Shown piece by piece: positions 23,301 through 48,971 of a DNA stretch of 64,000 nt (its first letter is position 1; each line of letters starts with the position of its first letter). Below the pieces are notes generated by a model that made no database searches, was not told the origin of the DNA, and was given only the letters and a program-made list of their open reading frames with translations. The translations under genes were made by a program, and so were the position numbers. The DNA is taken from IMG/VR virus record IMGVR_UViG_2582581306_000002, positions 15,726-79,725 of that record. The stretch is one strand, 5' to 3'. The DNA is from a virus (taxonomy: Duplodnaviria > Caudoviricetes).

Positions 23301-26300
23301 ACCTGACGGATAGCCTTCAGGATGCGGTCCCATGCCGCCCGCAACGCGGTGTGCGGCTTGATCGTCGATACGCCGGTAGCGTAGGCCGCAAAGGCTTCTG
23401 CCTCGACCTCGTGAGCCGTCATCTTCGCTGCCTGCTTCTCACGGCCGATCCGCTGCTGCACCATGCGTCGCAGACGGCCAATTTCGGCCTTGAGGACAGC
23501 TTTCTCGGCATTTGACAGGAAGAGGTGCTGCAGGCGGTGGAAAGCCTCATGGTAGGCGTTCGTGGCGCTCGCCGTGTTTTCAGCGATGGCAATGACGTCC
23601 TGCCCGGGCGAGTAGAAGCCGCCGGCCGTCGTCGGCGTCGTCGTACCCCATGCTGCGGCGCCGTTCGGGAGGTCGATGCGCTTCATCCACATCACATCGT
23701 TGAGGCCAGCGACCTTGCGGACGATGTCATTCACAGCTTGGATGTCAGCGGGGGAGCCGAGCCCTGTATCAGTGGAAGTATCGACATCTCCCCAGCCCAT
23801 TGGGGCCGCGGCTTTGCGCTTTGGTGAGACAATTTTGACCCGGCTATCGTCGTAGATCACGTAATTGTAGGTGCCATCTCCAGCATCGCGAGACGCGCCG
23901 TCGAGGAAACGGTGACCCGGGATGCCTGCCGCGCGCAATGCTTCGGAAGCCGCCTTGTCGGAGCCACGTTCCTTAACGAGGCTTTCATAATAATCCTGAA
24001 AGGTTTGATCGAGGTTTAACCTGCCGGACAGCGCATTATTGAACTTTTCGCGAATACCTTCGAGCGTGGCACGCTGAGCCGGAGTGAGCTCGTACACAAG
24101 ATCAAATTCTTCGTCTATGCCGAGGTCATCGCGAATGTAACGCTCTCCATGCTGTTGCCCTATTATATTGCCGGCAAGCGTGGAAAACCTTCTGATATCC
24201 GCTTTGGATGCCTTCCGAGCACCGGCTGGTGCCAACTTCTGAAGTATTTTCCGCACGCCCTCCGGCTGGTCCGAAATATCACCATCCCACCATGCAAGTT
24301 CGCTATCCTCGGGAACATCGACCTCGAAAAGCTGCCCACCTCCCTCATGTTTGAGGTTTGCGCTTTTCAGCCAATCCCGTCCGCCCTCGTAGAATGCCTT
24401 CATTCGGCCGGTGTCTGTTGCTGCAAACTGTTCGAGCTGCTCGATTGCCTCTGCAACACTCAGAACACCCAAGAGAGCATCCGTCCCGGCCTTCTCCTCG
24501 TTGGTCATTTTGGAGCGATCCAACGTTTTCACGTCGACGCCGTTGAGAAGGAAGCGACTGTTCCGGGTCAACATACGCCTATAATGGTTCGCGACCTCCT
24601 TCTTGCCCGCAAAATAGAGGCCCCAACCGAACGACTGGTTGCCTTCGCCGGTACCAATCATCTCAGTGCTGAACTCATCGAAGTCTGAGCCTGTGCCATG
24701 GTAGGCCGCCTGAAACTCCGCATCTTCGGGCGGCTTTACATTCTCGGCAGCATCAACGTCTGCCGCAGACGACATGCCGTCGAAGGCGGTGGCACGGGGA
24801 TCGTATTTCACGCCCATGTACCAGGACTTCAAATAGGGCCGCGCGACGTCGCCGAGATCGGCCAGCATAGCCGTGGCAAATGCCGCGAAGGTGCGGGCGC
24901 CCTTTTCGATGTGATAACCGGCCAGCGTGACACCGGCCTGCAGGATTTCGGGATCGATGCCGCTGTTCAGCGTCGAGCCGGATAGTTTCTTGCGGAGCAG
25001 CGCGCGCGCCTTCTCCGCAGCGTCTTCGGTGAAAACGGTGTTTTCTGTCACCGGAAGTTTCTGCTTCGCTGGTGGCTTGGACGTCCGTGCCTCATGCTTC
25101 GCCTTCATGTCCGCGAGCGATTCCTTGAACTCCTTGCGGATCGCGTCGGCGAGCTGCTTGCCCTTGAGGACGATCCGGCGCTTGCCATCGTCCTTGTCGA
25201 GGATGAACGTGATGGCTGGCCCGGGGCGGGTCTCCACCATGTATTTGTTGCCACCGGCACCACCGGTACCGAATTTCTTCTCGACGAGCTCCAGCAGCTC
25301 CTTATCCTGCATTCCGGCTTTGACGGCTGCCGCGATGTCGTCATCGCCGCCATTGGTCTGGGTAAGGCGGCCAAGTGCATCGGAAATCGCATCATCTTCA
25401 CTGCCCCAGACATCGTCCCAGGGATGATCGTCGGCGTTGAAGGCGCGCTTGACCTCTGGAACCGGCGTCTGCTCGACGGTCGCCGCCTTTACCGACGGCG
25501 TGGCGTTAGTACCGCGCTTTCCTCCGACATCCCCGTTCCGAGGCGATAGTGAATCGTCGATGGGCACAGACCGACCTGTTCCGCCCATGCTGTCAGGGTC
25601 TTGGTCTCCCCCCCGATCGTCATCATGTGGTTTTTCCGCATGTTGTGGGCTTGCTCCTTCTTTGTCGCCCAACGAAGGTTCCCCGGCTCGTAGTTTCCCT
25701 CGTTGTCTATCCGGTCCAGCTGATGTTTCGGTGTCGGCCTGTCCCCGACGATTTCCAGAAAGGTCGAGAACCTGCTCATCCTCGGATCTAGGGCGATCCC
25801 CCGCCCCCCGTAGTTGTGGTAGTACGGGCTCTTCGGGTTTTGCGTCCGGTCCAATATGTTGAGCCACGTCTTGTACAGGGGATGCCTGCTCAGTCCGTGA
25901 TATTCTCGCTGCCCCCTGGGGCGAGCGTGTTGCCTTGTCATCTTTGAGGAGTACCTTCAGGTCCTGGACCGACATCTCAGTGATGTCGCCCATGCGGCGC
26001 GAAGCGGAGGCATCGGAAAAGCCCCGGCTGTAAATATCGACCGCGTCCGCACGATCTGATGCGCCAAGTATAACCTTCAACTCGTCGAAACGTCCAGTGT
26101 CCGGGTCGATCTGATCGACAACAAACGCAGGGTTCTCGTCGGAGATATCCGATGTTCCGGCTTTCACGTACAGATCGACATGATCGCCATCGGCACCGGT
26201 GGTTCCCCTGAAATATCCGTAGTGCGCCGGCATCGTAACCGACCACGGTTTACCGTCTGGGCCTGTTCCCTTACGCTCCGAACCAACCGGATTTTCAATC

Positions 26301-29300
26301 GAAATATCCAGCCCACCCAGCCGAATGTGGCCCTTTTTGTAATTTCCTTCTTTTTGCTGTGCTTCCGTCGGCTCTGGAAGATCATTCAGTGGAGATGTCG
26401 CTGCAGCATGCGCCTCGGTGTCGACATTGGAGATCGCGTTAGCCGGTACCAAGGCGTTCAGTTTCTTCCTGACCCCGCCGGAATGACCGGCCCAATCCAG
26501 CTTTTCAGACCGTTTGATGCCGGCGGTATCGAGCACGACGCGACGCTCGTCCGGCGACATCGCATCCCACCAGACCTGCGCCTCGTCGATCGGCGCCACT
26601 GGTTCGTCTATTGCGCCGCTGCGACGGTGCTCCGACTGCCACTCCTTCAGGCGCTTGTCGTTGACCGGCGGCATCTTGATCGCCAGTTTCGACCGGGCTT
26701 CCTTGGCGGCGCGCTCGACGCGGTACCGGAAGTCATCACTGAGCTGACCCAGTGCCTGCGAATCGATCTCGAACTCCTTGGCGAGCAGCCGCTGTTCCGC
26801 CGGCAGCGCCTCGTCCATGCCGAGTTGGCTGGTCCCCATGATCCGCTTGCTGGTCAGACGCTCCTTGCCGAGGTCGTAGAGGCGGGCATGCAAGGCGTCG
26901 GGCATGGACACCGTTTTGTCACCGAGACGGCGATCGGTGCCGGTCAGCACAGGCGTTTCCCGCTCGACCGGCGGATTGCGCTTCAACTCCTGCTCTTCGA
27001 CCTGCTTCGCATTGAGCTTGCTGACAAACAGCGCCGCGGCGGGCACCTGGTAGGATTGGCCTGCATCGTTGGTCACGAGGACCTCGGTCGCGCCTTCCTC
27101 GTAGGAACCGACCTTGGCCGAAAACCTGCCGAGCTCCGGCGTATCGACGATGACGCGCTGACCCGGCTGCGGTGCCGACGGCAGTTTCTCAAGCGCAGGC
27201 ATCTGCTCGCTACGTGGCGGCAATTCGCTGGTGATTTCACCGGCAACGGGCTCCTGCGGGCGCAGTGCCTCATCGTCCGAGGATTCGGGCAAAGCGTCGC
27301 GCGTCGGCAGCAACGAGCCCGACGGTGGTTTCGCGATCTCGGTCAACTGGCCCAGCGGGATCTGGTAGACCTCGCCGCTTCCGCTATCGACGACGACGGC
27401 CTCGTCGCCCTCGTAGCCTTCGACGGTCGCCATGAAGGGCTCGACACCGTCGGCATCGACGCGCACCGTGGCACCTTGAGCCGGACGGATGCCGCTCGAA
27501 GCTGCCGCAGCTGCTGCGACCTGCGCGCCGATACCATGCTCCTGCTGCTGCCGGACCGCTTGCGTTTCGCCGTGTTCCAGCGCTCGCGCAAGCGGCCCAG
27601 CCCGCCTTGCCCCCGCAGGCGGTGCCTGTTGGGTCGCTGGTGAAGCGACCTGTTCGTCGATTTCGTTGCTGATCTCGGCAGAGGCTGGGCTGATTGCCCC
27701 ACCAGCACCACCCAGCCCGCCGCCCATGGCTGCGCCGGCAGCGAGCCCGCCCGCAGCTGCCTCCGCGACACCCTCGGTTAGATTTTGGCTTGGATCGACC
27801 GTCTGCACGGCCGCGTTTTCAGCGACCTTCTGCGATGCACTCTGTGGGAGTTCTTCGAGGATGCCCTCACCGGCCGCACCGCGACCGGCTCCAACCAGAA
27901 GACGTTTCGCGACGGTACCGCCGACGCCTTCCGCAATAATCTTGGCGAGAGCACGGTCACCAAGACCGCCGAATGCGCCGGTTGTTACACCGGCTACCAA
28001 AAAAGCTTGCGAGGCGGCGTCATCTGTTATCGAGGCAATAGCTTCGTCCGGCGACATTCCCTGAGAAATAAGTGCCTTGACGGAATCAGCCTCCAACAAC
28101 TGATCGCGAGGTATCTCCGCGATACGATCGCGTACTTCTATCGCTGACTGTCCCCCTCCAAGGCCGCCCTCACCGACGGCGCCAGCGACAAGCGCTGTCT
28201 TCGCGGCTGTTGCAGCTGCGGCCTTCTCGCCCAGGCCACCCACGATCGCTGCGGTGTAGGCACCCCGCGCCAAAAGCGCGCTTGGCCCCATCGTGGCCAG
28301 CGTGCTCGGTGCAGATTCGGCTATCGCGCCGAGGTAACTGTCAGGATCCGACCATGCAGGTCCAAGCGTACCCTTCTCGCTGTCCCACCACGTCTTGTTG
28401 TAGCTGACTTTGCCGGCCTCGGTGACAGATGCTCGGGCTGTCGTCGCGTAGTCACGGAGCCGCTGTTCAACAGGTTTTCCCGTTACCCACTCATCCACAG
28501 CGTCCAGACCGCCGACGATCGATGGACCGACCTTGGGTATCATTCCCACAACAGCGCGCACCGTTCGGCCCAGATCTGCGTTCCCGGCACCAACCTTTCG
28601 GGCGAGGTCACCACCGCGACCAGTCGATCGGTTCTCTTTTTCCCATTCTGCCTTCCACGCCTCGTATTCCACCTCGGACATGGTGAGGTATTTTCCAGGC
28701 TCACGTGTATCTAGGGCTGCATGGGTCTCTTCTATCAGCTGATTTTCAGCAGCGACGCCTGCCCCAGCACCACCGGCGGCAGACCGAGCCTTTGCAGCCG
28801 CCTCGGCCTCTTTCACCGACTTGAAGCGCTCGAACGTCTGTCCGTTCGCCTGCTCATAGGCCTGCATTGTGCGAAGGATGTTGTCCTCGTCGCCGGCGTC
28901 GAACTGCACTGGCCCCTTTGGACCCATCCACAACGATGGGACGTTGACCCACTCGCCGCTTGGGAGCTGCCACGTGGTGGAAATCTCGGTCGAATAGCTG
29001 CCGTCCGCGTTCGGGCGCTGCTCGTCTGGCCTGAACGGTCGCAACTGGGCAGTAGATGCAGCCATTTCCTTGAACGGATTGGCCTCACCGTACAGTTTCA
29101 TGTCGTCTTTCGGCTGGAAGTCGCCGGAGACAGGGATACCGCCCTTTTCGGCGTTCGTCGTGCCTTCCGCCTGCGCGACTGCCTGCGGAGCCCCTCCTGC
29201 CGCGACATCCTGAAACCAGCGCGGAGCCTTGTTCATGTTCCTGTTGGTCTTGTCGTGCATGAACCAGGTGGAACCGTCTCCCTTCTGGTCCTTCAGATCG

Positions 29301-30406
29301 ACGTGCAGCATGTCCGGTGAATCGGTATAGGTGATGAACCGCTTCGCACCGCGCGCGCGGAGATCCTGCACCAGTGCGGCCCGCTCCTGGTCGGACATGC
29401 CCTTCATGGAGATGTCGGACGCATCGCCGCGCGAATGTTCACCGGGGCCACCGGCCTTGGCAGCCTCAACACGGTGCTGCGGCGACCGGAAGCCGGAAAG
29501 CACGGTTAGATCGCGACCGAGCGCTTTGGACGAATCGACCAGGATGCTTTCGAACGCCGGCGCCAGCTTGTTCTGCTCCGGATGGCTGAAAAACAGTTTC
29601 CCGCCACTGCCGGCCGGCGCTTCCTCTTCGGGCCGCACCAGACGGGCAAGACCTTTCGCTGAAGGATTCGGCACATAGCTGCTCGACTGGTCAGTTGCCG
29701 CCGCACGCGCCGCTGTCTCCTTGTCCACCGCCGCAAACGGGTCTTTGCCACCATAGAGCCCGAGGCCATCCTTGACCTCGAACCCCTCGCCGATCGTCAC
29801 GCCGCCCGCCGGCGCCGCAGCTTCCTGCCGCTTACCCGTGGACGAATAGTAGGTATGGCCGCCGATCTTCGTGGTCACCGGCATGGTCTTGGCCCAATCC
29901 GGCGACACATAGCCGGCATGGAAGTGATCAGCACCGCCGGTCGGGTCTTGCAGCGTGCCATCAAACACGCCCTGCACGATCTTCTCCGCCTCGCTGCGGA
30001 TCATGGGATTGCGCTGCGCTTCCCGGGAACCCTCACGCGGGTTTTCATAACCCTCGAACTGCGACGGCTGGCGAACAACATCTGCTGGCGAGATACCGCG
30101 AGCTGCTGCCCGGTTCTTGATGACAGACGCGACGCCCACCATGCCCTGGGGACCGTCACCGGCCGCCTCGGCGATGACGGTATCCACCATGTCGTTCCAA
30201 TCCTTCGCGTCGAACGACGTGTTCTTGTTCACGACGCGGGATGGGAGCTCTTGTGTGTTGGTGCCAGGTGTCTGGGTGTTGACCGCGCGCGTCGTGCTCT
30301 CGGCAGGCTTCGGGTTCAGCCCGCCACCGCCATAGAGGCCGAGCGGGTCTTTGAACTCAGAAGCGTCCTTGGAATTGCCGAGACCGATGACAATGGGGGG
30401 GGGCAT
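20393..30406 (-). CDS. Giant polyvalent virion/injected protein (3337 aa)
   Basis: Recognisable segments: SleB-type cell-wall hydrolase, M15 peptidase (SGFRS..H...D...HVD), inorganic-pyrophosphatase-like (GNYKKGH...HYGY...DGDHVD), ART-like (YHGT...GWGLYF), zincin HEAFH, PLxRFG (YFPLGRFG). Confidence 0.9.
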   Translation of the reverse strand: MPPPIVIGLGNSKDASEFKDPLGLYGGGGLNPKPAESTTRAVNTQTPGTNTQELPSRVVNKNTSFDAKDWNDMVDTVIAEAAGDGPQGMVGVASVIKNRAAARGISPADVVRQPSQFEGYENPREGSREAQRNPMIRSEAEKIVQGVFDGTLQDPTGGADHFHAGYVSPDWAKTMPVTTKIGGHTYYSSTGKRQEAAAPAGGVTIGEGFEVKDGLGLYGGKDPFAAVDKETAARAAATDQSSSYVPNPSAKGLARLVRPEEEAPAGSGGKLFFSHPEQNKLAPAFESILVDSSKALGRDLTVLSGFRSPQHRVEAAKAGGPGEHSRGDASDISMKGMSDQERAALVQDLRARGAKRFITYTDSPDMLHVDLKDQKGDGSTWFMHDKTNRNMNKAPRWFQDVAAGGAPQAVAQAEGTTNAEKGGIPVSGDFQPKDDMKLYGEANPFKEMAASTAQLRPFRPDEQRPNADGSYSTEISTTWQLPSGEWVNVPSLWMGPKGPVQFDAGDEDNILRTMQAYEQANGQTFERFKSVKEAEAAAKARSAAGGAGAGVAAENQLIEETHAALDTREPGKYLTMSEVEYEAWKAEWEKENRSTGRGGDLARKVGAGNADLGRTVRAVVGMIPKVGPSIVGGLDAVDEWVTGKPVEQRLRDYATTARASVTEAGKVSYNKTWWDSEKGTLGPAWSDPDSYLGAIAESAPSTLATMGPSALLARGAYTAAIVGGLGEKAAAATAAKTALVAGAVGEGGLGGGQSAIEVRDRIAEIPRDQLLEADSVKALISQGMSPDEAIASITDDAASQAFLVAGVTTGAFGGLGDRALAKIIAEGVGGTVAKRLLVGAGRGAAGEGILEELPQSASQKVAENAAVQTVDPSQNLTEGVAEAAAGGLAAGAAMGGGLGGAGGAISPASAEISNEIDEQVASPATQQAPPAGARRAGPLARALEHGETQAVRQQQEHGIGAQVAAAAAASSGIRPAQGATVRVDADGVEPFMATVEGYEGDEAVVVDSGSGEVYQIPLGQLTEIAKPPSGSLLPTRDALPESSDDEALRPQEPVAGEITSELPPRSEQMPALEKLPSAPQPGQRVIVDTPELGRFSAKVGSYEEGATEVLVTNDAGQSYQVPAAALFVSKLNAKQVEEQELKRNPPVERETPVLTGTDRRLGDKTVSMPDALHARLYDLGKERLTSKRIMGTSQLGMDEALPAEQRLLAKEFEIDSQALGQLSDDFRYRVERAAKEARSKLAIKMPPVNDKRLKEWQSEHRRSGAIDEPVAPIDEAQVWWDAMSPDERRVVLDTAGIKRSEKLDWAGHSGGVRKKLNALVPANAISNVDTEAHAAATSPLNDLPEPTEAQQKEGNYKKGHIRLGGLDISIENPVGSERKGTGPDGKPWSVTMPAHYGYFRGTTGADGDHVDLYVKAGTSDISDENPAFVVDQIDPDTGRFDELKVILGASDRADAVDIYSRGFSDASASRRMGDITEMSVQDLKVLLKDDKATRSPQGAARISRTEQASPVQDVAQHIGPDAKPEEPVLPQLRGAGDRPRSEDEQVLDLSGNRRGQADTETSAGPDRQRGKLRAGEPSLGDKEGASPQHAEKPHDDDRGGDQDPDSMGGTGRSVPIDDSLSPRNGDVGGKRGTNATPSVKAATVEQTPVPEVKRAFNADDHPWDDVWGSEDDAISDALGRLTQTNGGDDDIAAAVKAGMQDKELLELVEKKFGTGGAGGNKYMVETRPGPAITFILDKDDGKRRIVLKGKQLADAIRKEFKESLADMKAKHEARTSKPPAKQKLPVTENTVFTEDAAEKARALLRKKLSGSTLNSGIDPEILQAGVTLAGYHIEKGARTFAAFATAMLADLGDVARPYLKSWYMGVKYDPRATAFDGMSSAADVDAAENVKPPEDAEFQAAYHGTGSDFDEFSTEMIGTGEGNQSFGWGLYFAGKKEVANHYRRMLTRNSRFLLNGVDVKTLDRSKMTNEEKAGTDALLGVLSVAEAIEQLEQFAATDTGRMKAFYEGGRDWLKSANLKHEGGGQLFEVDVPEDSELAWWDGDISDQPEGVRKILQKLAPAGARKASKADIRRFSTLAGNIIGQQHGERYIRDDLGIDEEFDLVYELTPAQRATLEGIREKFNNALSGRLNLDQTFQDYYESLVKERGSDKAASEALRAAGIPGHRFLDGASRDAGDGTYNYVIYDDSRVKIVSPKRKAAAPMGWGDVDTSTDTGLGSPADIQAVNDIVRKVAGLNDVMWMKRIDLPNGAAAWGTTTPTTAGGFYSPGQDVIAIAENTASATNAYHEAFHRLQHLFLSNAEKAVLKAEIGRLRRMVQQRIGREKQAAKMTAHEVEAEAFAAYATGVSTIKPHTALRAAWDRILKAIRQVQNFLQGRGFQTAEDVFDRAKSGAIAQRTPVSKPKVEATQFSIAEDSDRLIPTPGAIASALSGKLTDIQPAMLKTIPLNYFPELARPNMTAVGDYLRVKRLLDTYRGKKHEKAGEVVEQWRKVISTGYLGKDKSRAAQISSLMHDATLAGVDPSLTDAETIAKTGYDALRKQYLALPVKARELFSTVRDTYRQQAEELDQLLLDNVRKAQQIALDRAEADYQKNIADLDKKNLTAKTRKAKEAELATQYKEQKTRAQWTMKARMTKMRIAFENSRVPAPYFPLGRFGRYFVAVRDVDGETLYFSKHETAHERDQTATRVQKAYPAGTVKVGVTENSSELRQAMDPRIVAEIETLLGDAGAAPELQDAIWQRYLESMPELSARKRFIHRKGTAGYHEDAMRVFANALFHGAHQMGKIKYGLELQELTNKAKDQAEEADDQTRAMTLANELAKRHDWVMNPTGSEWAQWMTSVAFVYYLAASPAAAMVNLTQTVMLGVPILGAKYGGVAKSSAALLRASKDFVVSKGRLMGSSTTDDEKRAMEAFYESGLIDRTQSYDLAGAGQNGINQTSIRAKTMKVISWAFQQAEVVNRSVTALAAYRMARAAGRTEPDAIDAAHELTLKTHFDYSNSSRPAIMQNDFAKVALVFRQYQINYLYRVFRDIHQSLKGESAAVRKEARYQLAGVVGMMSLLAGVTGTIGFNLVMALASAIFGDDDDPMDFEQQFRKSVQDILGPELGGIVLNGAPGHYLGIDLTSRIGMPDLWFRSPSRDLQGKSEYEYWALQSLGASVSMIGQFWQGFSVIKDEGNVARGLEVAAPKFIRDLLKTYRYAQEGVTSARGDEILPANQIDYHDLVAQFLGFTPAKVAETWDRNISLKNAEQAILDKRRMLMNRFAMAVTMKDDEARKEAIADIKKFNAVPVNGPLAITAETLKRSLKTRARNAAKREDGVLIGNPALGKSLREKLPDPIYR
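25489..25941 (-). CDS. HNH-family endonuclease-like gene nested in the +1 frame of the giant gene
   Basis: HG....PLY.TW..I..R.......Y.NYGGRGI...LDRIDNEGNYEPGNLRWAT..EQ..N, plus a C-terminal TLTAWAE..G...TI..RL HTH. Confidence 0.85.
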   Translation of the reverse strand: MTRQHARPRGQREYHGLSRHPLYKTWLNILDRTQNPKSPYYHNYGGRGIALDPRMSRFSTFLEIVGDRPTPKHQLDRIDNEGNYEPGNLRWATKKEQAHNMRKNHMMTIGGETKTLTAWAEQVGLCPSTIHYRLGTGMSEESAVLTPRRR

Positions 30407-30431: not shown

Positions 30432-30444
30432 GCACGTCATGCGC
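30432..30444 (-). promoter_or_regulatory. Late-leader motif GCGCATGACGTGC (giant gene)
   Basis: 25 nt upstream of the ATG; preceded by TTCCAA-N17-TATAAC. Confidence 0.85.
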
Positions 30445-34639: not shown

Positions 34640-34652
34640 GCACATCATGCGC
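34640..34652 (-). promoter_or_regulatory. Late-leader motif GCGCATGATGTGC
   Basis: 20 nt upstream of the ATG; preceded by TAGCAA-N17-TAATGT. Confidence 0.85.
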
Positions 34653-36182: not shown

Positions 36183-36364
36183 TATGCAGCCCTCGCTGTG
36201 AATATCGCGCCGTTGTCACGGCTGACCAGTGGTTGATTGTTGGTTCTGCTGACGAGAGCGTTCGGGGGCACCCCCGCGCCCGCTAAACGGTTGGCATCGA
36301 GCCCGACCATGTCGATGCGCTTTGGGAGGTTGATCGCAAACGTCGCAAGCAACCCGGCCATCAC
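36182..36364 (-). CDS. Small hypothetical protein
   Basis: Overlaps both neighbours (translational coupling). Confidence 0.6.
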   Translation of the reverse strand: MMAGLLATFAINLPKRIDMVGLDANRLAGAGVPPNALVSRTNNQPLVSRDNGAIFTARAA

Positions 36365-36678
36365 GGCACCAGGATGAACGCGACCTTATCGCCCGGCTCG
36401 CACGGCTCGTCGAGGCGTTCGCCTGCCCGGATCAGGATGCGGGGATTTGCCGCCGCATTCGGGTTGGCACCGATCGCGATGTAGGAATCGGCCTGGGCGC
36501 TGATACGCAGGATCATCTGGCCGGAGCCCTGACCGCTCTGCGGCGCGGAGCCGACCGTCGTGCCTGGTGCTGCCACCGTTTCCGACCAGACGCGCTTTTG
36601 AAGGATGGATTGGATGGTGTCGTTGGCGCCGCGCACGCCGGCGAACCCGGCTTCGACGTGAATACCTGCAAAGGCCAT
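36361..36678 (-). CDS. Small structural adaptor (paralog of 34305-34619)
   Basis: GIHV..GFAG.RG..DTIQ....KRVWSET. Confidence 0.75.
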   Translation of the reverse strand: MAFAGIHVEAGFAGVRGANDTIQSILQKRVWSETVAAPGTTVGSAPQSGQGSGQMILRISAQADSYIAIGANPNAAANPRILIRAGERLDEPCEPGDKVAFILVP

Positions 36679-36698
36679 GTGCTCTCTCCGAAAAGACA

Positions 36699-36711
36699 GC
36701 ACATCATGCGC
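36699..36711 (-). promoter_or_regulatory. Late-leader motif GCGCATGATGTGC
   Basis: 20 nt upstream of the ATG; preceded by TGGTAA-N17-TAATGT. Confidence 0.85.
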
Positions 36712-36788
36712 GGGTAGAGCGCGACATTACCGCACGCTCATGGTTTTTACCAGACCGACAAACCTTGAGGCGTTACGCGCTAGAATTC

Positions 36789-36805
36789 GTTGCATTAAAT
36801 GCAAC
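36789..36805. promoter_or_regulatory. Operator GTTGC-N7-GCAAC
   Basis: GTTGC-ATTAAAT-GCAAC. Confidence 0.75.
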
Positions 36806-36869
36806 TATACTCTTTACGGCACTATCACAGGTGGATTATCGTGCCTCGGCACAATGGGGATTGGTTGCG

Positions 36870-37073
36870 GTGGCATCTTACTACGAAAAGCTCGAAGGCC
36901 TGAGAGCCATGCGCCAGTCCGCGCTCCACGCGGCCAGCATCGACGAACTGCGTCAGATTGTCGTGAAGCTCATCGATGGCGAGATCGACACCGTGAAGTC
37001 GATTGTCGGCCAGTGGTCAGACGATGACCTCCCCGAGGTGCCTACCGCTGCCTTGAGCGTTGCCGCCGGCTGA
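36870..37073 (+). CDS. Small protein, paralog family B
   Basis: GTG start; LRAMRQSALHAASIDELRQIVVKLID. Confidence 0.6.
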   Translation: MASYYEKLEGLRAMRQSALHAASIDELRQIVVKLIDGEIDTVKSIVGQWSDDDLPEVPTAALSVAAG

Positions 37074-37278: not shown

Positions 37279-37611
37279 TCAAGCCGCCCCGACGCGCAAG
37301 CCAGTGTTTATCTGCACCTGAATTGCGCGATCGTCCCACAGCTCGATCATGCCGAAATCCTTGATGTTGGTCACTTCGAGTATCGGAAGCCCGTTGGATG
37401 CGAGCCATGCGTGGATATGCGCGATCACTTCCGCTTTCTCCGGCTCAGCCACACTGACCCGGGCCGTGAAGATCTTCATATCACGCCCCTGCCTCTGCCA
37501 TTCCCGGACGCGCTCCGTCATCAAGGGAATGGGCTCGCCTATGTGCTCGATCCCTTTCCATCCATCATATCGCGCTAATGTACCGTCTAGATCGATGCCG
37601 ATCCATGCCAT
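37279..37611 (-). CDS. HAD-superfamily phosphatase-like protein
   Basis: IDLDGTL, FTAR, TN.K, WDDRA. Confidence 0.8.
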   Translation of the reverse strand: MAWIGIDLDGTLARYDGWKGIEHIGEPIPLMTERVREWQRQGRDMKIFTARVSVAEPEKAEVIAHIHAWLASNGLPILEVTNIKDFGMIELWDDRAIQVQINTGLRVGAA

Positions 37612-37648
37612 CGTAGTTCCTTCCCCTTTAGGGCCTGACAAAACCCCG

Positions 37649-37873
37649 TCAGGCCTTCCGGACGTCGCGGAAGAACGTCCGCTCCACCTCGGGTGCCAGA
37701 CCCGATATGCCGGGCGTGAACTTCGCCGGGATCAAGCCGTTGGCCAAAACCTTGACCGCGTGCTTGGTGGCGATGATCAGCCGGACCGATTGGCCCGACT
37801 TCCAGTCCACCTTGACGCAGGCGGCGTCCCCGATCTCAACCGCCTGCCCCACCTTCACTGACAGTGAAATCAT
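37649..37873 (-). CDS. Divergent CsrA/RsmA-like RNA-binding protein (74 aa)
   Basis: Gapless match to the CsrA pattern: M..L..KVG....IGD...V.V....G..VR; SD AAGGAG. Confidence 0.7.
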   Translation of the reverse strand: MISLSVKVGQAVEIGDAACVKVDWKSGQSVRLIIATKHAVKVLANGLIPAKFTPGISGLAPEVERTFFRDVRKA

Positions 37874-37895
37874 CCCGTTGCGCTCCTTCGGGCGC

Positions 37896-38864
37896 TCAAT
37901 TGGCAAGATATTGTTCACGTTCCGCCTCCGACATCTTTGCCAGTGCGTTTTCGTAAGCCAGGGCATCGGTGTCGGCGAGGCGATCCAGCCACGCAAACTT
38001 GCTGCCGTCGCTGTCGGCGTCGTTGATATCGGCTGCGGGGACATGCGCGAGTGACGGCACCACTTCCCGCTTCGCAGCGGGCTTGGCTGGCGTGGTCGGC
38101 TTTGGCGTCGGCGGCGTTTCCGCGCCGATGGATTTCCTGATCTGCGCGTCGATGACCTTGTGGGCCTGCTCCAGCAGACGCGGGTCAAGTGGGTTGGTGG
38201 CCGTTGCCTGGAGCTTCTTCACCTCATCATCAAGCGCCTTGTAGAGGATGGTTCCCGGCTCCGAATACTGGGTGTGTTTCGCGAAGAACGTCGGAACTGC
38301 AACGCTGCTCCAGTGCGTGACAGCCGCCTCCTGGGCGAGGACGGTCTTGAACCGCTCTTCGCGAAGATCCTCACGCTGATCGTTGAGCTTGCGGAACTGT
38401 GCCCGGTATTCTCCGCCGGTCAGATCGCCGTCGTCGAATTTCTGGGTGATCTCGTCGAGCTGCTTCTCGATCTCATCGAGTTTGGTCGCGTTGTCAGCCG
38501 GCAACGCGCGCCAACCCGGTCCCGGTGCGATATCACTGGCATCGTCGTCGTCGGCGTCCGGCTCGGTGACGGCAGCCGCTGCCGCCTCGGCCGTGACATT
38601 TTCGGCCACGGCTGGTGTCGCTGCAGCCTCGGCACCTGAGACGGGCTCGACGACGGCGGGCGTGACTGCGGCGCCCTCAGCCGTCGTCGTCGCATCTGCT
38701 GCAGCCGCCGCTGCGGCTTCCTCGCCTTCTGCCGCAGCTGCAGCCTCCGCGCCTTCCGTGTCGTCGGCCCCTTCGTCGTCATTGTCGATATCCTCGAGGA
38801 GGCCTTCGCGCTCCTCGTCGGACAGGAGTTCTAGTTCTTCTTCACTGAATTTCGGGGCTGCCAT
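37896..38864 (-). CDS. Probable scaffolding protein
   Basis: Acidic, coiled coil, directly after the portal. Confidence 0.7.
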   Translation of the reverse strand: MAAPKFSEEELELLSDEEREGLLEDIDNDDEGADDTEGAEAAAAAEGEEAAAAAAADATTTAEGAAVTPAVVEPVSGAEAAATPAVAENVTAEAAAAAVTEPDADDDDASDIAPGPGWRALPADNATKLDEIEKQLDEITQKFDDGDLTGGEYRAQFRKLNDQREDLREERFKTVLAQEAAVTHWSSVAVPTFFAKHTQYSEPGTILYKALDDEVKKLQATATNPLDPRLLEQAHKVIDAQIRKSIGAETPPTPKPTTPAKPAAKREVVPSLAHVPAADINDADSDGSKFAWLDRLADTDALAYENALAKMSEAEREQYLAN

Positions 38865-38885: not shown

Positions 38886-41153
38886 TTAAGGAGTTGCCGG
38901 CGCAAGGCCGAACTGTGGGGTTTGCGGGGGTTGGGCCTGCGGGGCGGGTTGCTGTGCTGCTGCGGCCTCCTGCTGCTGTGCCAGTCCGATGGCCTGCGCC
39001 ATCGTCTCTTCTCGCTCGGAGCGAGACTGGAAGCCGCTTTCATGCAGAATAACGTCAGCGACGTGGGCGGCGGCAGGGATTGCAATGGCGGACTGCGCGG
39101 CGGTGAGAGCGTTCTGCTGGCTTGTGACGTTCGTCGATGCGATCTTCGACGCCAGTTCCTCAACCTTGGCGGCGGCGAGCTTCGCCTCCTCCTGTGTCTT
39201 GGCGGCTTTTGCCGTGGCTTCGGCCAGCTGCGCCTGCATCATCTGCTGCTGCATCTGCTGCTGTATCTGCTGGTTCTGCTCCTTGCCCTGCTCTTCCGGG
39301 GTGAGCTCCTCGGCATCCGGATCGCGCATGCCGGTGACCTGCCTGATGCGCTTCACCAGTTCCTCGCGCTGCGGGATGTCCATGCCCTCGACGATGAGAT
39401 CGAGCATGACCATGGCGAGTTGCGGGGCGCCTGGTGCAAGCTTCATGAGGAGATCGAGCAATGCCTCGGTTTGTGCCTGGCGCACGCTGGCCCGCCAATC
39501 CTCCTCGGAAATGACGAAATCTGCCTTCGATCGAACGATATCGTTTTCCGGAAGGCCGTCGTTGACCTCGATATATTCGGGCGTGCCGCGCATGTTCGTG
39601 ATGCGAAACTGCTTCGGTTCCGACATGAACTGCTCGACGTTGGCGAGCTGCTTTTCGCCGCGCACCTGTGATGCGTAGCGCAGGTTGTCGAAGTAGATCG
39701 ATGACGTCAACGAGCCCTGATCCTGACGGCGCTCGATCGCGATGCCGCTGCGGGCATTGGTCTGGCGCCCGAGGTTTTCGTCGGTAACGCCGGAAGCGGA
39801 TTGAATGAGGCTGATCGAACGTGCCATCAGATCGAGATGGCCCTGCTCCAGGCCGCGATCCGCGTCGAGCTTCAGTTCCTTGCCGGTATTGACGACGATG
39901 ACAGCATCGGAGCGCGAGTTTTCCTCGATAAACTCGTCCAGATCGTCAACGGCGCCCTTCTCCATGATGGTCTTGTTCGTGGAAAGGATGTGCAGCGCCT
40001 TTGACGCGCGCTTGTTGACGTCGATCTGGATGTCCTTCAAGCCGCGGATCATGCCGTACGGCATCCCGTCGCGGCCGCGCCGCTTGCCCCAGATCGGCGT
40101 GAAGGGAAACCGATTGTGGCGATAGGGTGACGGCGAATACCAGAGCATGCCGGCCGTCGTGAAAATGGCCACGTTCATCCGCATCGTCGGCTTGGTGACA
40201 AGTTCGGCCTTACCGCTCTCTACCTCGTCGCGGTGGCCCGGCGAGAAGGGATCGTATATCTCACCGGAGAACACCCCGCCTGTGACCTTTTCCGCCTTCG
40301 CCGGCATGCGGATCCAGCCTTCGATGACGCGGACCCGTTTGCGCTGGTAGCCGGTGATGTTGTCGGAGCGCCCGTTGGAGTTCTGCTCCAGTTCCAGTTC
40401 CTGCTGGTCAAGCACCTCGTCGCCATAGGCATCCATGCCGAGGAAATTATCGGAATCGGCGGCGGCACGCTCCAGGAGCGCCTTCCGCTTCGGGAACATG
40501 GCGCAGGCGATGTCGAGGTCGAGCCATTTATGCCGGAAGATGTAACGTCCATCGGACAGGTCCATCTCGGTGGCCGCGCTGTCCCAGAGGATGTTGCGCC
40601 AGCTTTCGTAGCGGGTGTACAGCGGCTCTTCGAGGTCGCTATCCTCGTAACCGTCTTCGACCCATCCGAGCCCTACTTTCGTGGCATCGGTGAACGCGCG
40701 TGAAACGTCGAACGGCGTCCGGTTGACGTCGGAGAGATATTTCAGGAGCTGGGTTTTCCGCTCCGCCGGCTTGCCGTCTTCCTTGCGGCGCGGCAGGATC
40801 TTGAAATCCGCCCTGCTGCGCTTCTCGGTGCCAAGAACCCAGTCGACCGACGCGGATATGACGTTGTAGACTAGCGGTATCTGGCCGCGATCGCGCAGGA
40901 TCTGCGCATCCTCTTCCGGCCACTGGTCATTGTCGTACATGTCCTCGTCATGCGCCATCTCCATGCGGTTCGGCAGCTGGCGGTCCATTTCGCGGGTGAA
41001 GAGATCGAGGAGACGATGATGGATTTCGACCATGCCGCTGCTGTCGAGCTTGTTGCCCGTGACGGCCCGCTCGGCACGGACGTCGCCGACGGGTACCGGA
41101 GATTTCATCTCCTTCCGTCGGACCGATCCATCTGTCGCCTGAAGATCAAACAT
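38886..41153 (-). CDS. Portal protein
   Basis: YD.DQW.....L..RGQ.P..YN, PYG.IR...D.Q...N, SG.AI..RQ.QG; Q-rich barrel tail. Confidence 0.9.
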   Translation of the reverse strand: MFDLQATDGSVRRKEMKSPVPVGDVRAERAVTGNKLDSSGMVEIHHRLLDLFTREMDRQLPNRMEMAHDEDMYDNDQWPEEDAQILRDRGQIPLVYNVISASVDWVLGTEKRSRADFKILPRRKEDGKPAERKTQLLKYLSDVNRTPFDVSRAFTDATKVGLGWVEDGYEDSDLEEPLYTRYESWRNILWDSAATEMDLSDGRYIFRHKWLDLDIACAMFPKRKALLERAAADSDNFLGMDAYGDEVLDQQELELEQNSNGRSDNITGYQRKRVRVIEGWIRMPAKAEKVTGGVFSGEIYDPFSPGHRDEVESGKAELVTKPTMRMNVAIFTTAGMLWYSPSPYRHNRFPFTPIWGKRRGRDGMPYGMIRGLKDIQIDVNKRASKALHILSTNKTIMEKGAVDDLDEFIEENSRSDAVIVVNTGKELKLDADRGLEQGHLDLMARSISLIQSASGVTDENLGRQTNARSGIAIERRQDQGSLTSSIYFDNLRYASQVRGEKQLANVEQFMSEPKQFRITNMRGTPEYIEVNDGLPENDIVRSKADFVISEEDWRASVRQAQTEALLDLLMKLAPGAPQLAMVMLDLIVEGMDIPQREELVKRIRQVTGMRDPDAEELTPEEQGKEQNQQIQQQMQQQMMQAQLAEATAKAAKTQEEAKLAAAKVEELASKIASTNVTSQQNALTAAQSAIAIPAAAHVADVILHESGFQSRSEREETMAQAIGLAQQQEAAAAQQPAPQAQPPQTPQFGLAPATP

Positions 41154-41580
41154 CTGCACGTATCTCCGTCTCTGTTACCCGCCCCGTCGCCAGATCGACG
41201 AGGGTGGCCTCGCCGACAACCTCTCCCTTTTCGGATTGGTACGGCTTGATGGTCAGCAGGTCGCCGAGATGATCGTGGATGATCGTGGTGATACGGATGC
41301 AGTTTTGCGGGGTGATATCGAAGCCCATGTGCTCCGCGAACGATGCGGAGGTTCGGGCTGATAGCCGGGGGTCCCCAATTCCAACTGCCTCTGACCATAC
41401 CCACGCCTTGTCCACCGTGACCACGCACGGGACCAGCCTGTCAGAATATTCCCCGCCCGTTGGAATAAGCACCAGGCACGGTCTGAATTGCCCCTCGGAC
41501 CGTAACCAAGTTCCGATAGCGGTAATGGGACCGTGCGTTTTTGTCCATGCCCGTTTATTAAGGTCGAGTGCCTGTGTCAT
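41146..41580 (-). CDS. Hypothetical protein between terminase and portal
   Basis: ATGA coupling; IHDHLGDL motif. Confidence 0.7.
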   Translation of the reverse strand: MTQALDLNKRAWTKTHGPITAIGTWLRSEGQFRPCLVLIPTGGEYSDRLVPCVVTVDKAWVWSEAVGIGDPRLSARTSASFAEHMGFDITPQNCIRITTIIHDHLGDLLTIKPYQSEKGEVVGEATLVDLATGRVTETEIRADV

Positions 41581-43109
41581 GCTGCCAATCCTGATCTTGA
41601 TTTGCGTTTTGGAGTGGTGGGGGTACCACCGTTGCGGACCTCGTCGGCCATCTGCGCGTGCTGGCGCAGGGCATCGGCGGCGTGCTGGTGACCGTTCTTC
41701 TGAGGCTCTTCGGACCAGTTCTGGTTCCGGACGTTCCACTGCTTCCGGTAACCTTCGAGATGCTTGAGGCCGGCATCGCAGTTCACCGCGTCGAAATAGT
41801 AGGTCGAAAACTGCTCGCGCAGCGCGGGGATGCCGACGCCATTCAGATCGGGCGTCCTGGGGACGATGACGATGTTGCGCAGCTTGAGCTCTTCCAGCAT
41901 GTCCGCCGGTGTCTTCAACTGCTTCGCGTCGGGCCGTCTCTGGTTGCCGTCGTGCGGCAGGAAATGGCGGCCCCAGATGTAACCCATCGCCTCCATCTGC
42001 TTCACGAAGTAGGAATAGGCCTCGCCGGATCCTTCAATGAAGTTGATGAAGCAGTTCGCCTGCCCGACCTGCTGGTGAAACCAGATCGCGATGTCATCGC
42101 TGATACCAAGGTCCCAGAACGTGTTGACTGGCAGATCGGTGCGGTGTGGCACCAGCGTGATGCGGTTCTGCTTCCGGGCCAACACCAGCTGGTCGCGCAG
42201 ATAGGTGCCCTCGGTGGAAATCTGAAACGCCTCGTCGAGATGCGTCGGATATTCCGTCCACATCTTCTCTTCGGCGCCTGAAAACGTGTTCTCCCGAGTG
42301 GCGACGTACCAGGCCCGCTTCGGAAGGCTGATCTCCGTCTTGATGATCGTTTCCATGCGGTCGAAATAGTCGTGATCCTTCTTCGACATGACCACATAGG
42401 CGGGATCGACCTCGTACTCGTCGGCGTCCCACCAGGACGCGAAGTGCAGCCGGTAATCCTGCTTCGAAAGCTGTTTGCCTGAATCCTGCCTCTTCTTGGC
42501 GATCTGCACCATGTCGTAGTAGGCGCCGTCGCGACCCTTGGCGGTCGATTCGATGATCGTGATGCCGTTCTCGGCCGCCGGCAGGGCGCCGGTGATGATC
42601 TCCTCGGCCTTATCCGGCGAGTTGGCGCAGATCGCGCCGAACTCGGAGACATGGAGCCAGCTCAAGGTGTCGCCGCGCGCCGAGGTGGAAACCGTGATCG
42701 ACGAGCCGTTGCCGAACGTCATTTCGTGGACGTTGTTGATCACATACGGCACCGCCTTGCGGATGAAGGCGGGGAGCTTGAAATAGGCGAACTTGATCTT
42801 CTGCCGCATGATCTTCGCGGCAATGGTCTGGTCCTGGGCGATGACGGCACCGATCGTGTTCACAACGAAGAGGCAGGCGTCCAGGATGACAAGTTGCGCC
42901 ACGGTGGAGAAGCCGCGCTGGCGGGCCTTCGGGATGATGTTCCGGTACCAGAGGTCCTCTAGGAATTTCTCCTGCGCCTCGTTGGGCACGAACAGGACGG
43001 TCTGCTTGTCCTTGTCGAGGATGTAGTAGAGGTTCCTGATCCGCCACATAGGGTTTTTCAGGTTCTCTTTCAGCGCGGCTTCCGTCATGCCTCGGAGGTG
43101 CTCGTACAT
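41577..43109 (-). CDS. terL: Terminase large subunit
   Basis: Walker A KARQRGFST, Walker B LHVSE, coupling ESTA, nuclease WDLG..D, HAADA. Confidence 0.93.
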   Translation of the reverse strand: MYEHLRGMTEAALKENLKNPMWRIRNLYYILDKDKQTVLFVPNEAQEKFLEDLWYRNIIPKARQRGFSTVAQLVILDACLFVVNTIGAVIAQDQTIAAKIMRQKIKFAYFKLPAFIRKAVPYVINNVHEMTFGNGSSITVSTSARGDTLSWLHVSEFGAICANSPDKAEEIITGALPAAENGITIIESTAKGRDGAYYDMVQIAKKRQDSGKQLSKQDYRLHFASWWDADEYEVDPAYVVMSKKDHDYFDRMETIIKTEISLPKRAWYVATRENTFSGAEEKMWTEYPTHLDEAFQISTEGTYLRDQLVLARKQNRITLVPHRTDLPVNTFWDLGISDDIAIWFHQQVGQANCFINFIEGSGEAYSYFVKQMEAMGYIWGRHFLPHDGNQRRPDAKQLKTPADMLEELKLRNIVIVPRTPDLNGVGIPALREQFSTYYFDAVNCDAGLKHLEGYRKQWNVRNQNWSEEPQKNGHQHAADALRQHAQMADEVRNGGTPTTPKRKSRSGLAA

Positions 43110-43657
43110 CAGGCCCCCTTCGGCTTGATGCTGTGGCCGGAGATTTCGGACATGAAATCTGCGAGCGGGCTATCGGGCTCGACGTCGTGCTTGATGTTCT
43201 TGGTGTCGCGCCACTGGTCCGGCATCCGGTTCTTCAGCCAGAAGATGCCAGCGGCGGCGTTCGGCGGGACGTGCTCGATGACGGGCACATGCTCCGGCAC
43301 ACCGTCGACGATCATCACCTTGACCGAATCGAAGCTGTAACCGGTTGCCAGCTTGTACAGGCTGTCCTGAACCTTGGTGTCGGCCTCGGTCTTGCCGATC
43401 TTCAGGGCGTCGGCAAATTCCGGGTGCTCCAGCTTCCAGCGGTAGATGGTGCGGATATCGACAACCAGCGCATCAGCAACTTCGAGATCAGTGGCACCGA
43501 GCTTTGCCAGCGCCTTGGCGATCTGGATGAAACGATCTTCCCACAACGTGGGGCGGCCGACACGGGGGCGCTGTCTCTGCGGCTTCCGTTTCGCCTTTGC
43601 CTTCGTCTTCGGTTTGGCCGCCGGCTTTTTCGCGGGTGTCGCCTTGTCGACTGCCAT
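43109..43657 (-). CDS. terS: Terminase small subunit
   Basis: GRPT, HTH, HPEF..A, FWLKNR.P..WRD. Confidence 0.88.
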   Translation of the reverse strand: MAVDKATPAKKPAAKPKTKAKAKRKPQRQRPRVGRPTLWEDRFIQIAKALAKLGATDLEVADALVVDIRTIYRWKLEHPEFADALKIGKTEADTKVQDSLYKLATGYSFDSVKVMIVDGVPEHVPVIEHVPPNAAAGIFWLKNRMPDQWRDTKNIKHDVEPDSPLADFMSEISGHSIKPKGA

Positions 43658-45904: not shown

Positions 45905-46968
45905 GCTGCCTCCGCTCGGCGATCGCGATCAGCGATCAGTTCGGCATATCGTCCATGAATGCTGGATCTGTCGGTAAACGTGGGTTTGAAACCCAAGACG
46001 TGCGCGATGGCGCCACGGACGGTGCCGAGAATGTCTGCCTCTTGATCCGTGAGCATTCGGACCGGCCAACCTTTGACGTAGAGCATGTCCTTCGTGATCG
46101 CCTTCTCGAAGCGGACACGCTCCTGCGCCTTGACCTTTGTTTCGGCAAGGCGGCGCTGCATCGAGGCATCGAGAAGATCGGGAGCGACGTCACCGAGCCA
46201 TCTGGCGCCCTGGAAAGCGAATGTGCTTCTGCATTCCAGGTCGACCATGCTCCGGAAGAGATCGTGCGCTTCTGGCTGGGCAGCCGCGGCCGCAAGATCG
46301 CTCTGGTTCGACATAATGCAAAACCGGCAAGAAACACGGCTCATATTGAACTGGCGATAGGCCGGGTGCGGCTGCAGACCACTATCGTCGATCGATGCGA
46401 ACACATCCTCGACGCTCCAGTCGAGAATTGGCCGCCAGTTCCACACCCTGCCCTCTCGATCGCTGTCGGCGATGGTGGCTTTCGCGCGCTTCGAACTCTC
46501 TGCCCGGCGGATACCGGTCACATTGATGACCGTCTGACCTTTGAAGCGACGCTTCAACTCGGCCAGGATGACATGCGTTTTCAGCTCCGAGGTGCAGAAC
46601 CGCATTTCAGGGGTAGACCAGCACGGTATGACGGTGACGGTACTGAGCTTTTCATATCGGTCGGTGCTGAGCTCGAACCGGCGCTCCCAGCGCTGCATCA
46701 AGCCACCGGCTTTGCGACGCACCACAACGAGATCGCAGCCAAGATGCGCCGCAAGGGCTTCGCATACCGACAGCGAATCGTTCCACTCGACGGAGCCGAG
46801 GTCGCTGTGGATCAATATTCTAGGGCCGGTGTGCCCAATGCTATCGAGATGTGCGAACGTCGCCAAAGCGCAGGCTTGACTGTCTTTACCGCCTGAGACG
46901 CCAACAGCCACCGGCGCGCCGCCCCTGAGCAGCTCGGATATCTCCGGAATGATGGCGATCTGCATCAA
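45901..46968 (-). CDS. Phosphoadenosine phosphosulfate (PAPS) reductase-family protein
   Basis: SGGKDS PP-loop, [24 protein letters not shown]. Confidence 0.88.
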
Positions 46969-48737: not shown

Positions 48738-48971
48738 TCACGCTGCTGCCCCCTGCTTCTCGGCAGTCCGGTAGAAATCCGGCCTGAGAACTTCACGGGG
48801 AATACCCGTTACCGATTCGACTTCGAGCACCCGGTCCATAGGCACGCCGTTCCGTTCCCACCGCAAAATGGTGGACTTGTCGAACGGTTCGTCGAACATT
48901 GCGCCAAGAGCTTCCATGCTCATGCCGTCAAAGCCTTCGCGAAATATGGTGAGTGGCGAAACGATCTGCAT
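48738..48971 (-). CDS. Cro-like transcriptional regulator
   Basis: STILRWE.G.P......E..TGIP...LRPD; divergent from the repressor. Confidence 0.8.
   Translation of the reverse strand: MQIVSPLTIFREGFDGMSMEALGAMFDEPFDKSTILRWERNGVPMDRVLEVESVTGIPREVLRPDFYRTAEKQGAAA

Follow-up and report, generated by a model that had tools for sequence, protein, structure and literature searches.

A diverged CsrA-like protein and a conserved late-leader hairpin occur together in a group of podophages

We analysed a 64,000-nucleotide (nt) window of the 79.7-kb provirus record IMGVR_UViG_2582581306_000002 in IMG/VR, focusing on a 74-residue open reading frame (ORF) behind the portal gene. Its product, P0001, resembles the regulator CsrA, and a short hairpin stands in the leaders of several late genes of the same phage. 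The gene and the hairpin occur together in every relative examined, so the CsrA-like protein probably controls the phage's own late protein synthesis. The whole proposal is that a phage-specific CsrA-like protein would dock on the hairpins in the late leaders and change the translation or stability of these messages, and from the sequence comparisons below we give it somewhat better than even chances.

Phage genes for a "CsrA-like regulator" have been annotated since Bcep22. The co-occurring hairpin, conserved across phages of alpha-, beta- and gammaproteobacteria, offers them a concrete testable target near the predicted 5' ends of the capsid and lysis messages, and because the two occur together in every relative examined the function can be tested directly. 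P0001 extends the family to a subfamily that lacks the arginine equivalent to R44 of CsrA and to hosts without a Csr system. If the protein does bind the hairpin, the pair would constitute a translational late switch in a tailed phage, and the family would supply natural CsrA variants that differ in the loop they prefer, which would help to understand, and perhaps to engineer, RNA recognition by the CsrA fold.

Homology of P0001 to CsrA

Residues 1-43 of P0001 align with positions 1-43 of the Pfam CsrA model PF02599 (E 1.6e-4), and residues 1-40 match PHROG 8397, "CsrA-like regulator" (E 5.1e-5). The match to the NCBIfam csrA model is faint, at 15.6 bits against a cut-off of 70.1. A word-indexed protein search returned only two relatives besides the query, so a full HMMER scan, started from the three closest sequences, was required; it collected 59 proteins, 52 of them 62-91 amino acids (aa) long. 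These 52 together with P0001, P0005 and P0006 form the 55-row alignment A2, which leaves out the long repeat proteins P0007, P0008, P0016, P0044 and P0051 as well as P0060 and P0065, proteins of 112-114 aa with two stretches each. The A2 profile matches nine solved CsrA/RsmE chains in the PDB with E values between 3.7e-8 and 7.3e-5, the next match being at 0.086, and 40 of the 55 members match PF02599 at E <= 0.01 (best 1.3e-10). The nearest clusters in the ESM Atlas are also CsrA families, with a score of 0.88, which is a lead only. A tblastn search of P0001 against 50,697 phage records gave no match although relatives exist there; a protein this short and diverged escapes such a search.

These profile comparisons give good support to homology with the CsrA core and place P0001 as a diverged homologue in the CsrA superfamily. 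Membership of the curated CsrA family is not supported, because the family cut-off is missed and R44 is absent. A preliminary description of this DNA, made from the letters alone, had called the protein CsrA-like, and the hidden Markov model searches (PF02599, PHROG 8397, the A2 profile and the 40 members) confirm it. The identities that it listed (L4, V8-G9, I14-G15-D16, V20, V22, G27, V30-R31, V40 and V42) fall without gaps on the CsrA chain 2bti_A, and on the ungapped alignment positions 43, 44 and 46 are indeed L, A and G. It had also taken the ORF to be a real gene made from the portal operon, in agreement with the gene's own ribosome site, its spacing behind a 322-aa gene and its place in the terminase-portal gene string.

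Assignment to proteins with IPT repeats was considered and rejected. P0001 alone matches a four-repeat IPT chain with a summed E value of 2.4e-7, each repeat having an E value of 25, and the IPT chain, looked for among PDB sequences, is absent from the 12 matches of the A2 profile listed at E <= 10. The window's subclade, characterized by the motif GDAACVKVDWKSG (residues 2-32 of P0001), shows repeated weak matches to repeats of the IPT/TIG type, found in very long proteins (P0007, P0008, P0044 and P0051) and in PDB entry 21nr_A; they are not common to the wider family.

A hairpin shared by late leaders

The leader motif GCGCAUGANGUGC, with the general form GCGC-[A/U]NGA(N)-GUGC, can be folded as a 4-bp hairpin of G-C, C-G, G-U and C-G pairs closed by a loop of 4-5 nt. 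The window holds six exact copies against 0.92 expected with one mismatch allowed, a count that none of 100 shuffles reached. All of them end 20-28 nt short of a start codon and stand downstream of a -10-like hexamer (Table 1). The loop in the window is AUGA, with no GGA. Two genes of about 105 aa behind these leaders head an esterase cassette and a BNR-like cassette.

The portal protein of the window shares 54-65% identity with its counterparts in Sinorhizobium phage PBC5, Agrobacterium phage Atu_ph08, Ochrobactrum phage POI1126, Burkholderia phages Bcep22 and DC1, Ralstonia phage UAM5 and podophages of Erwinia, Pseudomonas, Serratia and Klebsiella. Behind the portal gene, each of the 12 named relatives has a gene of about 300-330 aa (Bcep22 gp52 and PBC5 gp27 are the counterparts of the 322-aa gene of the window) and then a CsrA-like ORF of 56-79 aa, with one extra small gene between the last two in Bcep22 (gp53) and DC1 (gp45). 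Eight of the 12 annotate the ORF as "CsrA-like regulator" or "carbon storage regulator"; it is annotated only as hypothetical in PBC5 (gp26), Atu_ph08 (gp17), POI1126 (gp06) and Mwe-JY07. By its position P0001 corresponds to the annotated "CsrA-like regulator" of Bcep22-like podophages, and the CsrA-like gene belongs to the core genes of the Bcep22/PBC5-like podophage group. The next gene in the phages of beta- and gammaproteobacteria, across an intergenic gap of about 100 nt, is that for the major capsid protein. The capsid operon has been relocated in the window, in PBC5 and in Atu_ph08, in the window to a place about 33 kb away. The hosts of the group are alpha-, beta- and gammaproteobacteria, and one record names a cyanobacterium. 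That record, Microcystis phage Mwe-JY07 (L025, 8045-8316), arranges its portal, CsrA-like and capsid genes as the proteobacterial phages do; the hairpin there overlaps the CsrA-like ORF at its 3' end, and the whole record is annotated as hypothetical proteins.

The capsid leader carries the hairpin in all 12 named relatives. It reads GCGC-AGGAU-GUGC in Bcep22, GCGC-AGGAG-GUGC in DC1, ACGC-AGGA-GUGU in UAM5, GCGC-AAGAC-GUGC in Itty13, Parlo and SopranoGao, GCGC-AUGAC-GUGC in PEp14, POI1126 and Mwe-JY07, GCGC-UGGAU-GUGC in Skulduggery and GCGC-AUGA-GUGC in PBC5 and Atu_ph08. Phages of gamma- and betaproteobacteria have two copies and those of alphaproteobacteria four to six; the second one in PEp14 and Skulduggery stands 22-25 nt upstream of the endolysin gene. 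Among 80 viral contigs collected by their capsid protein, 74 have a hairpin that ends 13-38 nt before the capsid start codon. Five of the remaining six have variant hairpins with a GA-containing loop, and in one (L080) none was seen. The CsrA-like ORF lies at most 4 kb upstream of the capsid gene on the same strand in 41 contigs. The other 39 have no such gene near the capsid gene; ten complete records among them were checked, and all ten carry it elsewhere. Gene and motif thus occur together in the 12 named relatives and in 41 contigs, and among the relatives examined we found no case of the motif kept without the gene. Since both are universal in the group, their co-occurrence represents shared conservation and is not a test by independent losses.

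A bacterial genome of the Rhizobiales (G001) contains a 78%-identical copy of the gene in a 37-kb prophage, which also holds five of the nine exact motif copies in 6.4 Mb. No PF02599 match above the cut-off was found in this genome except the prophage gene, so the host has no CsrA of its own that reaches this cut-off. The four copies outside the prophage (C2:544249, C3:1084237, C3:1898065 and C3:3988336; a reversed-pattern control gave 0) may belong to other prophage remnants.

A second C-A-U-G-A core is seen in many capsid leaders of phages of beta- and gammaproteobacteria, as CAUGAGG located at the ribosome site, some 20-35 nt beyond the hairpin (L073, L078, L081, L096, L100, L102, Bcep22 and Itty13). 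This distance falls within the two-site spacing reported for bridging by CsrA. In the window, a terminator scan flagged the hairpin at 36699-36711 on the minus strand, together with the downstream U-rich tail UGUCUUUUCG, as terminator-like, and in Parlo and PEp14 GGUUUUU directly follows the hairpin on its 3' side. A weak leader attenuator formed by hairpin and U-rich tail is conceivable.

RNA hairpin or DNA element

The hairpin might be read by something other than the CsrA-like protein, or by nothing at all, the protein then having an unrelated job. A DNA-binding late regulator, RNA polymerase acting on the initially transcribed region, a ribonuclease or a protein-free element that stabilizes the 5' end or sequesters the Shine-Dalgarno sequence could account for it. 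The motif follows a -10-like hexamer in all leaders, which makes a promoter-proximal DNA element or an element of the initial transcript possible, and its co-occurrence with the gene may reflect only shared descent. Without any protein, the leaders can also fold into alternative helices that cover the ribosome site: the 3' arm, or bases adjoining it, can pair with the ribosome-site region, as in the leaders at 34640 and 36699, with GUGCU...AGCAC just 5' of the AUG.

Alignment A3 comprises 46 distinct hairpins, in which identical 21-nt rows were merged and L074, L089, L099, L104 and L080 were left out. Three of the four core stem pairs never vary, which can be taken to mean that sequence and not pairing is conserved. 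The outer stem pair is G-C in 40 rows, G-U in three, A-U in two and C-G in one, and is never unpaired; the flipped pair occurs in L077, and L099 and L104 have the two stem arms exchanged (GUGC...GCGC). Four flanking pairs covary with a score of 0.227, compared with 0.125 in controls that were shuffled or slid, and none of 500 shuffles reached the observed value. The distance is not fixed on either side, being 8-18 nt to the -10-like hexamer and 13-38 nt to the start codon. The invariant G-U pair leaves no DNA palindrome, and together with the compensatory changes in the outer pair and the variable distance to the -10-like hexamer it leads us to favour an RNA hairpin near the predicted 5' end over a DNA site. 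The invariance of the core implies that sequence, besides shape, is being read. The loop of the Burkholderia phages is a textbook CsrA site beside a CsrA-like gene, and the spread of hosts over alpha-, beta- and gammaproteobacteria, with one cyanobacterium named, favours a reader that the phage itself encodes. Given this evidence we consider a reader other than the CsrA-like protein, or none, unlikely. The preliminary description had proposed P0001 as the reader of the leader motif, and the co-occurrence of gene and motif makes it the best candidate.

RNA-binding residues, C-terminal extension and predicted fold

In CsrA the RNA-binding face is formed by strands beta-1 and beta-5, and L4 and R44 are critical for RNA binding (PMC7652899). 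L4 is present in P0001. Two basic positions on these strands, which the preliminary description had overlooked, are also kept: position 7 in beta-1 is K in P0001 and K or R in 42 of the 55 subfamily members, and position 41 in beta-5 is K in P0001 and R or K in 30 of the 55. The alignment of beta-5 to CsrA is ambiguous by one or two residues; MAFFT anchors on a "PI" pair and puts the basic residue at the equivalent of CsrA position 43, HMMER at 41. Behind beta-5 the subfamily shares an extension of the form G46-x2-P49-x2-F52-x2-G55, with Gly46 in 54, Pro49 in 48, Phe or Tyr52 in 45 and Gly55 in 50 of the 55 members. The subfamily thus retains basic residues on both RNA-binding strands, with the HREE/helix part replaced by a new conserved extension, and P0001 represents a new subfamily without R44 of the known phage "CsrA-like regulator".

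An AlphaFold2 monomer model built from A2 is confident, with a mean predicted local distance difference test score (pLDDT) of 86.9, and has five strands, at residues 2-7, 11-14, 18-21, 29-34 and 40-43. No CsrA chain was listed when this monomer was used for fold searches: with Foldseek there was no match at E <= 0.001, and VIA-align gave only weak beta-sandwich matches with a best Z of 3.0. We give these searches no weight because the CsrA chain folds only as an interleaved dimer.

The same data could be read in terms of a small beta-rich protein of head assembly or of the virion, such as a scaffold accessory or decoration protein, that has a CsrA-like ancestor only and does not bind RNA. The gene lies in the head-morphogenesis string between the portal and about 320-aa genes and, ancestrally, the capsid gene; R44 is lost; the monomer model folds on itself and finds only the weak beta-sandwich matches; and the summed IPT match, despite its poor single repeats, would fit such a protein. 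A homologue in phage JC1 was seen as one peptide in purified virions (PMC9144972), evidence that its authors themselves treat as weak. However, the A2 profile matches CsrA chains only, the IPT chain being absent among its listed matches; the basic residues are kept on the strands where CsrA binds RNA; and the constant company of a CsrA-type hairpin would be left without explanation. We therefore rate a virion or head-assembly role of this kind as rather improbable.

Does residue 44 follow the loop?

The GGA of a CsrA site is present in the hairpin loop of Bcep22, DC1 and UAM5, phages of Burkholderia and Ralstonia. The repeat consensus of CsrB is CAGGA(U/A/C)G (PMC7652899), and the loop region CAGGAUG of Bcep22 fits it, as one would expect of a protein that reads the loop. 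The preliminary description had noted that the leader core of the window resembles a CsrA site without GGA, and in relatives the same hairpin indeed carries a true GGA loop.

We compared loop and residue 44 in 52 phages with a capsid gene, a CsrA-like gene and a loop. The rows are not dereplicated, and identical CsrA-like proteins occur among them (PEp14 and L082; Parlo and L079). Atu_ph08 and L015, with no capsid gene in the part of the record covered, and L080, with no hairpin seen, were left out. Arginine stands at the equivalent of CsrA position 44 in 19 of 22 phages with a GGA loop, compared with 2 of 22 with UGA and 0 of 8 with AGA, that is, 2 of 30 without GGA. On a tree of the capsid proteins this correlation reduces to about four independent contrasts on supported branches, of which 2.4 agree, 0 are opposite and 1.6 show no difference.

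The preliminary description had inferred a Csr protein of shifted specificity, and allowed that the loss of R44 could equally mean no RNA binding. That loss of R44 explains the change from GGA to UGA is not supported. A paired sign test of loop GGA versus R44 gives p of at least 0.25 and is underpowered. PEp14 has RR at positions 43-44 and yet an AUGA loop. L030 combines an alpha-type protein with an AGGAC loop. L088 (AUGAC) and L090 (AGGA) share an identical beta-5 strand. Since the independent contrasts number only four and these counter-examples exist, a specificity shift is only suggestive. The preliminary description is thus partly supported: a CsrA homologue encoded in the portal string that is the best candidate reader of the motif stands, R44 loss as the cause of the GGA-to-UGA change does not.

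A simpler possibility, judged from the loops seen, is that the whole family reads A-N-G-A and would tolerate any base at the second loop position. The alternative of distinct natural CsrA-operator pairs is doubtful: proteins with R44 would read GGA, alpha-type proteins would read A-U-G-A through the basic residue 41 and the C-terminal extension, and the extension might in addition bind a head-assembly partner, much as FliW does with the tail of CsrA, tying the translation of capsid and lysis genes to assembly. If this were true, a specificity-shifted branch of the CsrA fold would be running a viral late programme in hosts without a Csr system.

Proposed mechanism and relation to known systems

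The CsrA-like protein would be made from the terminase-portal gene string. We infer that it most likely forms a CsrA-type dimer, and that the dimer would dock on GCGC-A(N)GA(N)-GUGC near the predicted 5' end of late messages, which in the prophage would be those for capsid, virion protein, giant protein, the two spike cassettes and lysis. Docking would then alter the translation or lifetime of these messages. In the activating version a closed 5' hairpin would keep its 3' arm, or adjoining bases, off the ribosome-site region. We slightly prefer activation to repression, by analogy with CsrA on ymdA and on the flhDC 5' end. Almost as probable is classical two-site repression, in which the protein would bridge the hairpin and a purine-rich ribosome site 8-14 nt downstream of it. 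Because the late promoters resemble ordinary sigma-70 promoters and a prophage must silence its lysis genes, we lean towards activation by a protein made only after induction.

Several results weigh against docking of P0001 on the late leaders. P0001 stays below the gathering cut-off of PF02599 (22.0 versus 27 bits). R44 is missing from it, with A in its place, and from all 55 members of the subfamily, where P (22 members) and A (16) are the most frequent residues given for this position. The AlphaFold2 model has no CsrA-like C-terminal helix, only residues 50-52. The invariant core is neutral as to RNA pairing and might just as well form a sequence-specific DNA site after the promoter, and since gene and motif are universal in the group their co-occurrence may be shared ancestry, with no independent losses. 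In Bcep22 (record positions 48832-48844, L017) and DC1 (46734-46746, L110) the second exact copy of the motif sits some 900 nt within the annotated DarB-like giant ORF and is not a leader there; it may mark a start inside the ORF, a fusion that was mis-annotated or a regulatory site within the gene.

The Bcep22-like "CsrA-like regulators" (Bcep22 gp54, DC1 gp46, JC1 gp47, PEp14_0009 and Itty13 gp22; PHROG 8397) share with P0001 their place, small size, N-terminal 43 residues and leader hairpin. P0001 differs from them in belonging, with POI1126 gp06, to a subfamily of alphaproteobacterial phages without R at 44, in its G46/P49/F52/G55 extension, in the distance of about 33 kb to the capsid gene and in a hairpin found in six leaders and not two. 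Bacterial CsrA, RsmA and RsmE (PF02599; RsmE with hcnA, PDB 2jpp) have a homologous core from beta-1 to beta-5 with L4 kept, and their likeness extends to the candidate target, a short hairpin with a purine loop A-N-G-A near the ribosome site. Unlike them, P0001 falls below the Pfam cut-off and lacks R44 and a predicted C-terminal helix, the loop is AUGA instead of GGA, and the proposed targets are phage late leaders instead of a host regulon; an sRNA sponge of the Csr type was not seen, though no search aimed at one was made.

CsrA activates translation of ymdA and protects the 5' end of flhDC (PMC7652899). As in those cases the site is placed at the leader's far 5' end and alternative folds involve the ribosome-site region, but here one invariant hairpin is common to several operons. 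In Bacillus subtilis CsrA controls the translation of the main structural subunit Hag, and FliW binds CsrA's extended C-terminus (PMC7652899). The window subfamily also has a conserved C-terminal extension and its proposed target is a main structural subunit; the extension is unrelated in sequence, and a link to assembly would be pure inference. A further likeness is to the phage whose portal resembles that of the window. The scaffolding protein of P22 is autoregulated post-transcriptionally, so that head proteins are tuned at the level of translation there too. In P22 the structural protein itself regulates, whereas here a dedicated protein of RNA-binding type would do so.

Published work reads the phage homologues as directed at the host. 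PSI-BLAST found CsrA homologues in 30 phages (PMC7366521), others are listed with the same reading (PMC8450108), and JC1 gp47 has been called a moron (PMC9144972). On this reading, which covers Bcep22-like and other phage homologues, the protein would mimic host CsrA, rewiring metabolism or repressing a defence such as CRISPR-Cas. We regard this as improbable for the present family. The gene keeps a single conserved place in the late head module across relatives instead of being scattered like a moron; the host genome with the close copy has no Csr system to mimic; the subfamily lacks R44 and the candidate site lacks GGA; and one of these reports describes Burkholderia hosts of csrA-positive phages as having no chromosomal csrA (PMC7366521). 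CRISPRi-ART knock-down of the phage csrA homologue PTXU04_00028 gave smaller plaques, and the authors of that study state that the role of phage csrA homologues in the phage life cycle was untested before it (PMC11879866). In the literature searched, subscription papers and supplements aside, we found no link of phage csrA-like genes to phage leaders, and the strings of the leader motif were not found in print. The supplementary tables of PMC7366521 and PMC8450108 may already include proteins of the PBC5 type.

Gene neighbourhood in the window

The same-strand neighbours of the CsrA-like gene, namely the terminases, the portal gene and the 322-aa gene, place it in the packaging and portal string (Table 1). 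In transcriptional order on the minus strand the string runs small terminase, large terminase, phrog_10057, portal, the phrog_8246 gene of 322 aa, CsrA-like gene and a gene of 110-120 aa. A sequence search with the 322-aa neighbour gave three distant loci and was not used.

Table 1. Positions in the 64,000-nt window of the CsrA-like gene, its neighbours and the six leader hairpins
Feature	Position	Strand	Remarks
CsrA-like ORF (P0001)	37649-37873	-	74 aa, ATG to TGA, by translation
AGGAG ribosome site of CsrA-like gene	37883-37887	-	9 nt 5' of ATG, read from the sequence
322-aa gene, phrog_8246	37896-38864	-	function unknown; stop codon 22 nt upstream of CsrA-like ATG
P22-like portal gene	38886-41159	-	PF16510, E 1.5e-190; heads local gene string
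Small phrog_10057 protein		-	named "DNA methyltransferase"; listed between large terminase and portal
Large terminase	41577-43109	-	same strand as CsrA-like gene
Small terminase	43109-43657	-	same strand as CsrA-like gene
110-120-aa gene after CsrA-like ORF	37279-37611	-	weak phosphatase-/kinase-like PHROG matches only
8-bp hairpin GGCCUGAC/GUCAGGCC	37632-37655	-	overlaps stop codon of CsrA-like gene
Leader hairpin GCGCAUGAGGUGC	4055-4067	-	21 nt before endolysin gene (3497-4033)
Leader hairpin GCGCAUGACGUGC	4141-4153	+	before major head gene (4173-5279)
Leader hairpin	11663-11675	+	before virion structural gene (11698-12855)
Leader hairpin	30432-30444	-	before 3337-aa giant gene (20393-30406)
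Leader hairpin	34640-34652	-	before 104-aa gene preceding 657-aa BNR-like gene
Leader hairpin	36699-36711	-	before 105-aa gene (36361-36678) preceding GDSL-esterase gene

The 8-bp hairpin at the end of the CsrA-like gene has no U-run after it and is not among the terminator-like sites of the terminator scan; it may be a transcript end or a processing or stability site before the next gene. The start of that next gene is more likely the ATG at 37611, which is preceded by the ribosome site GGAAGGAA, than the TTG at 37641. Its weak PHROG matches are named phosphoheptose isomerase and polynucleotide kinase, and none of the named relatives annotates a counterpart at this place. Between the CsrA-like string and the leader at 36699 lies a plus-strand ORF of 116 aa (36677-37027) with no family match, and the span of this ORF contains the perfect inverted repeat GTTGCATTAAATGCAAC at 36789-36805.

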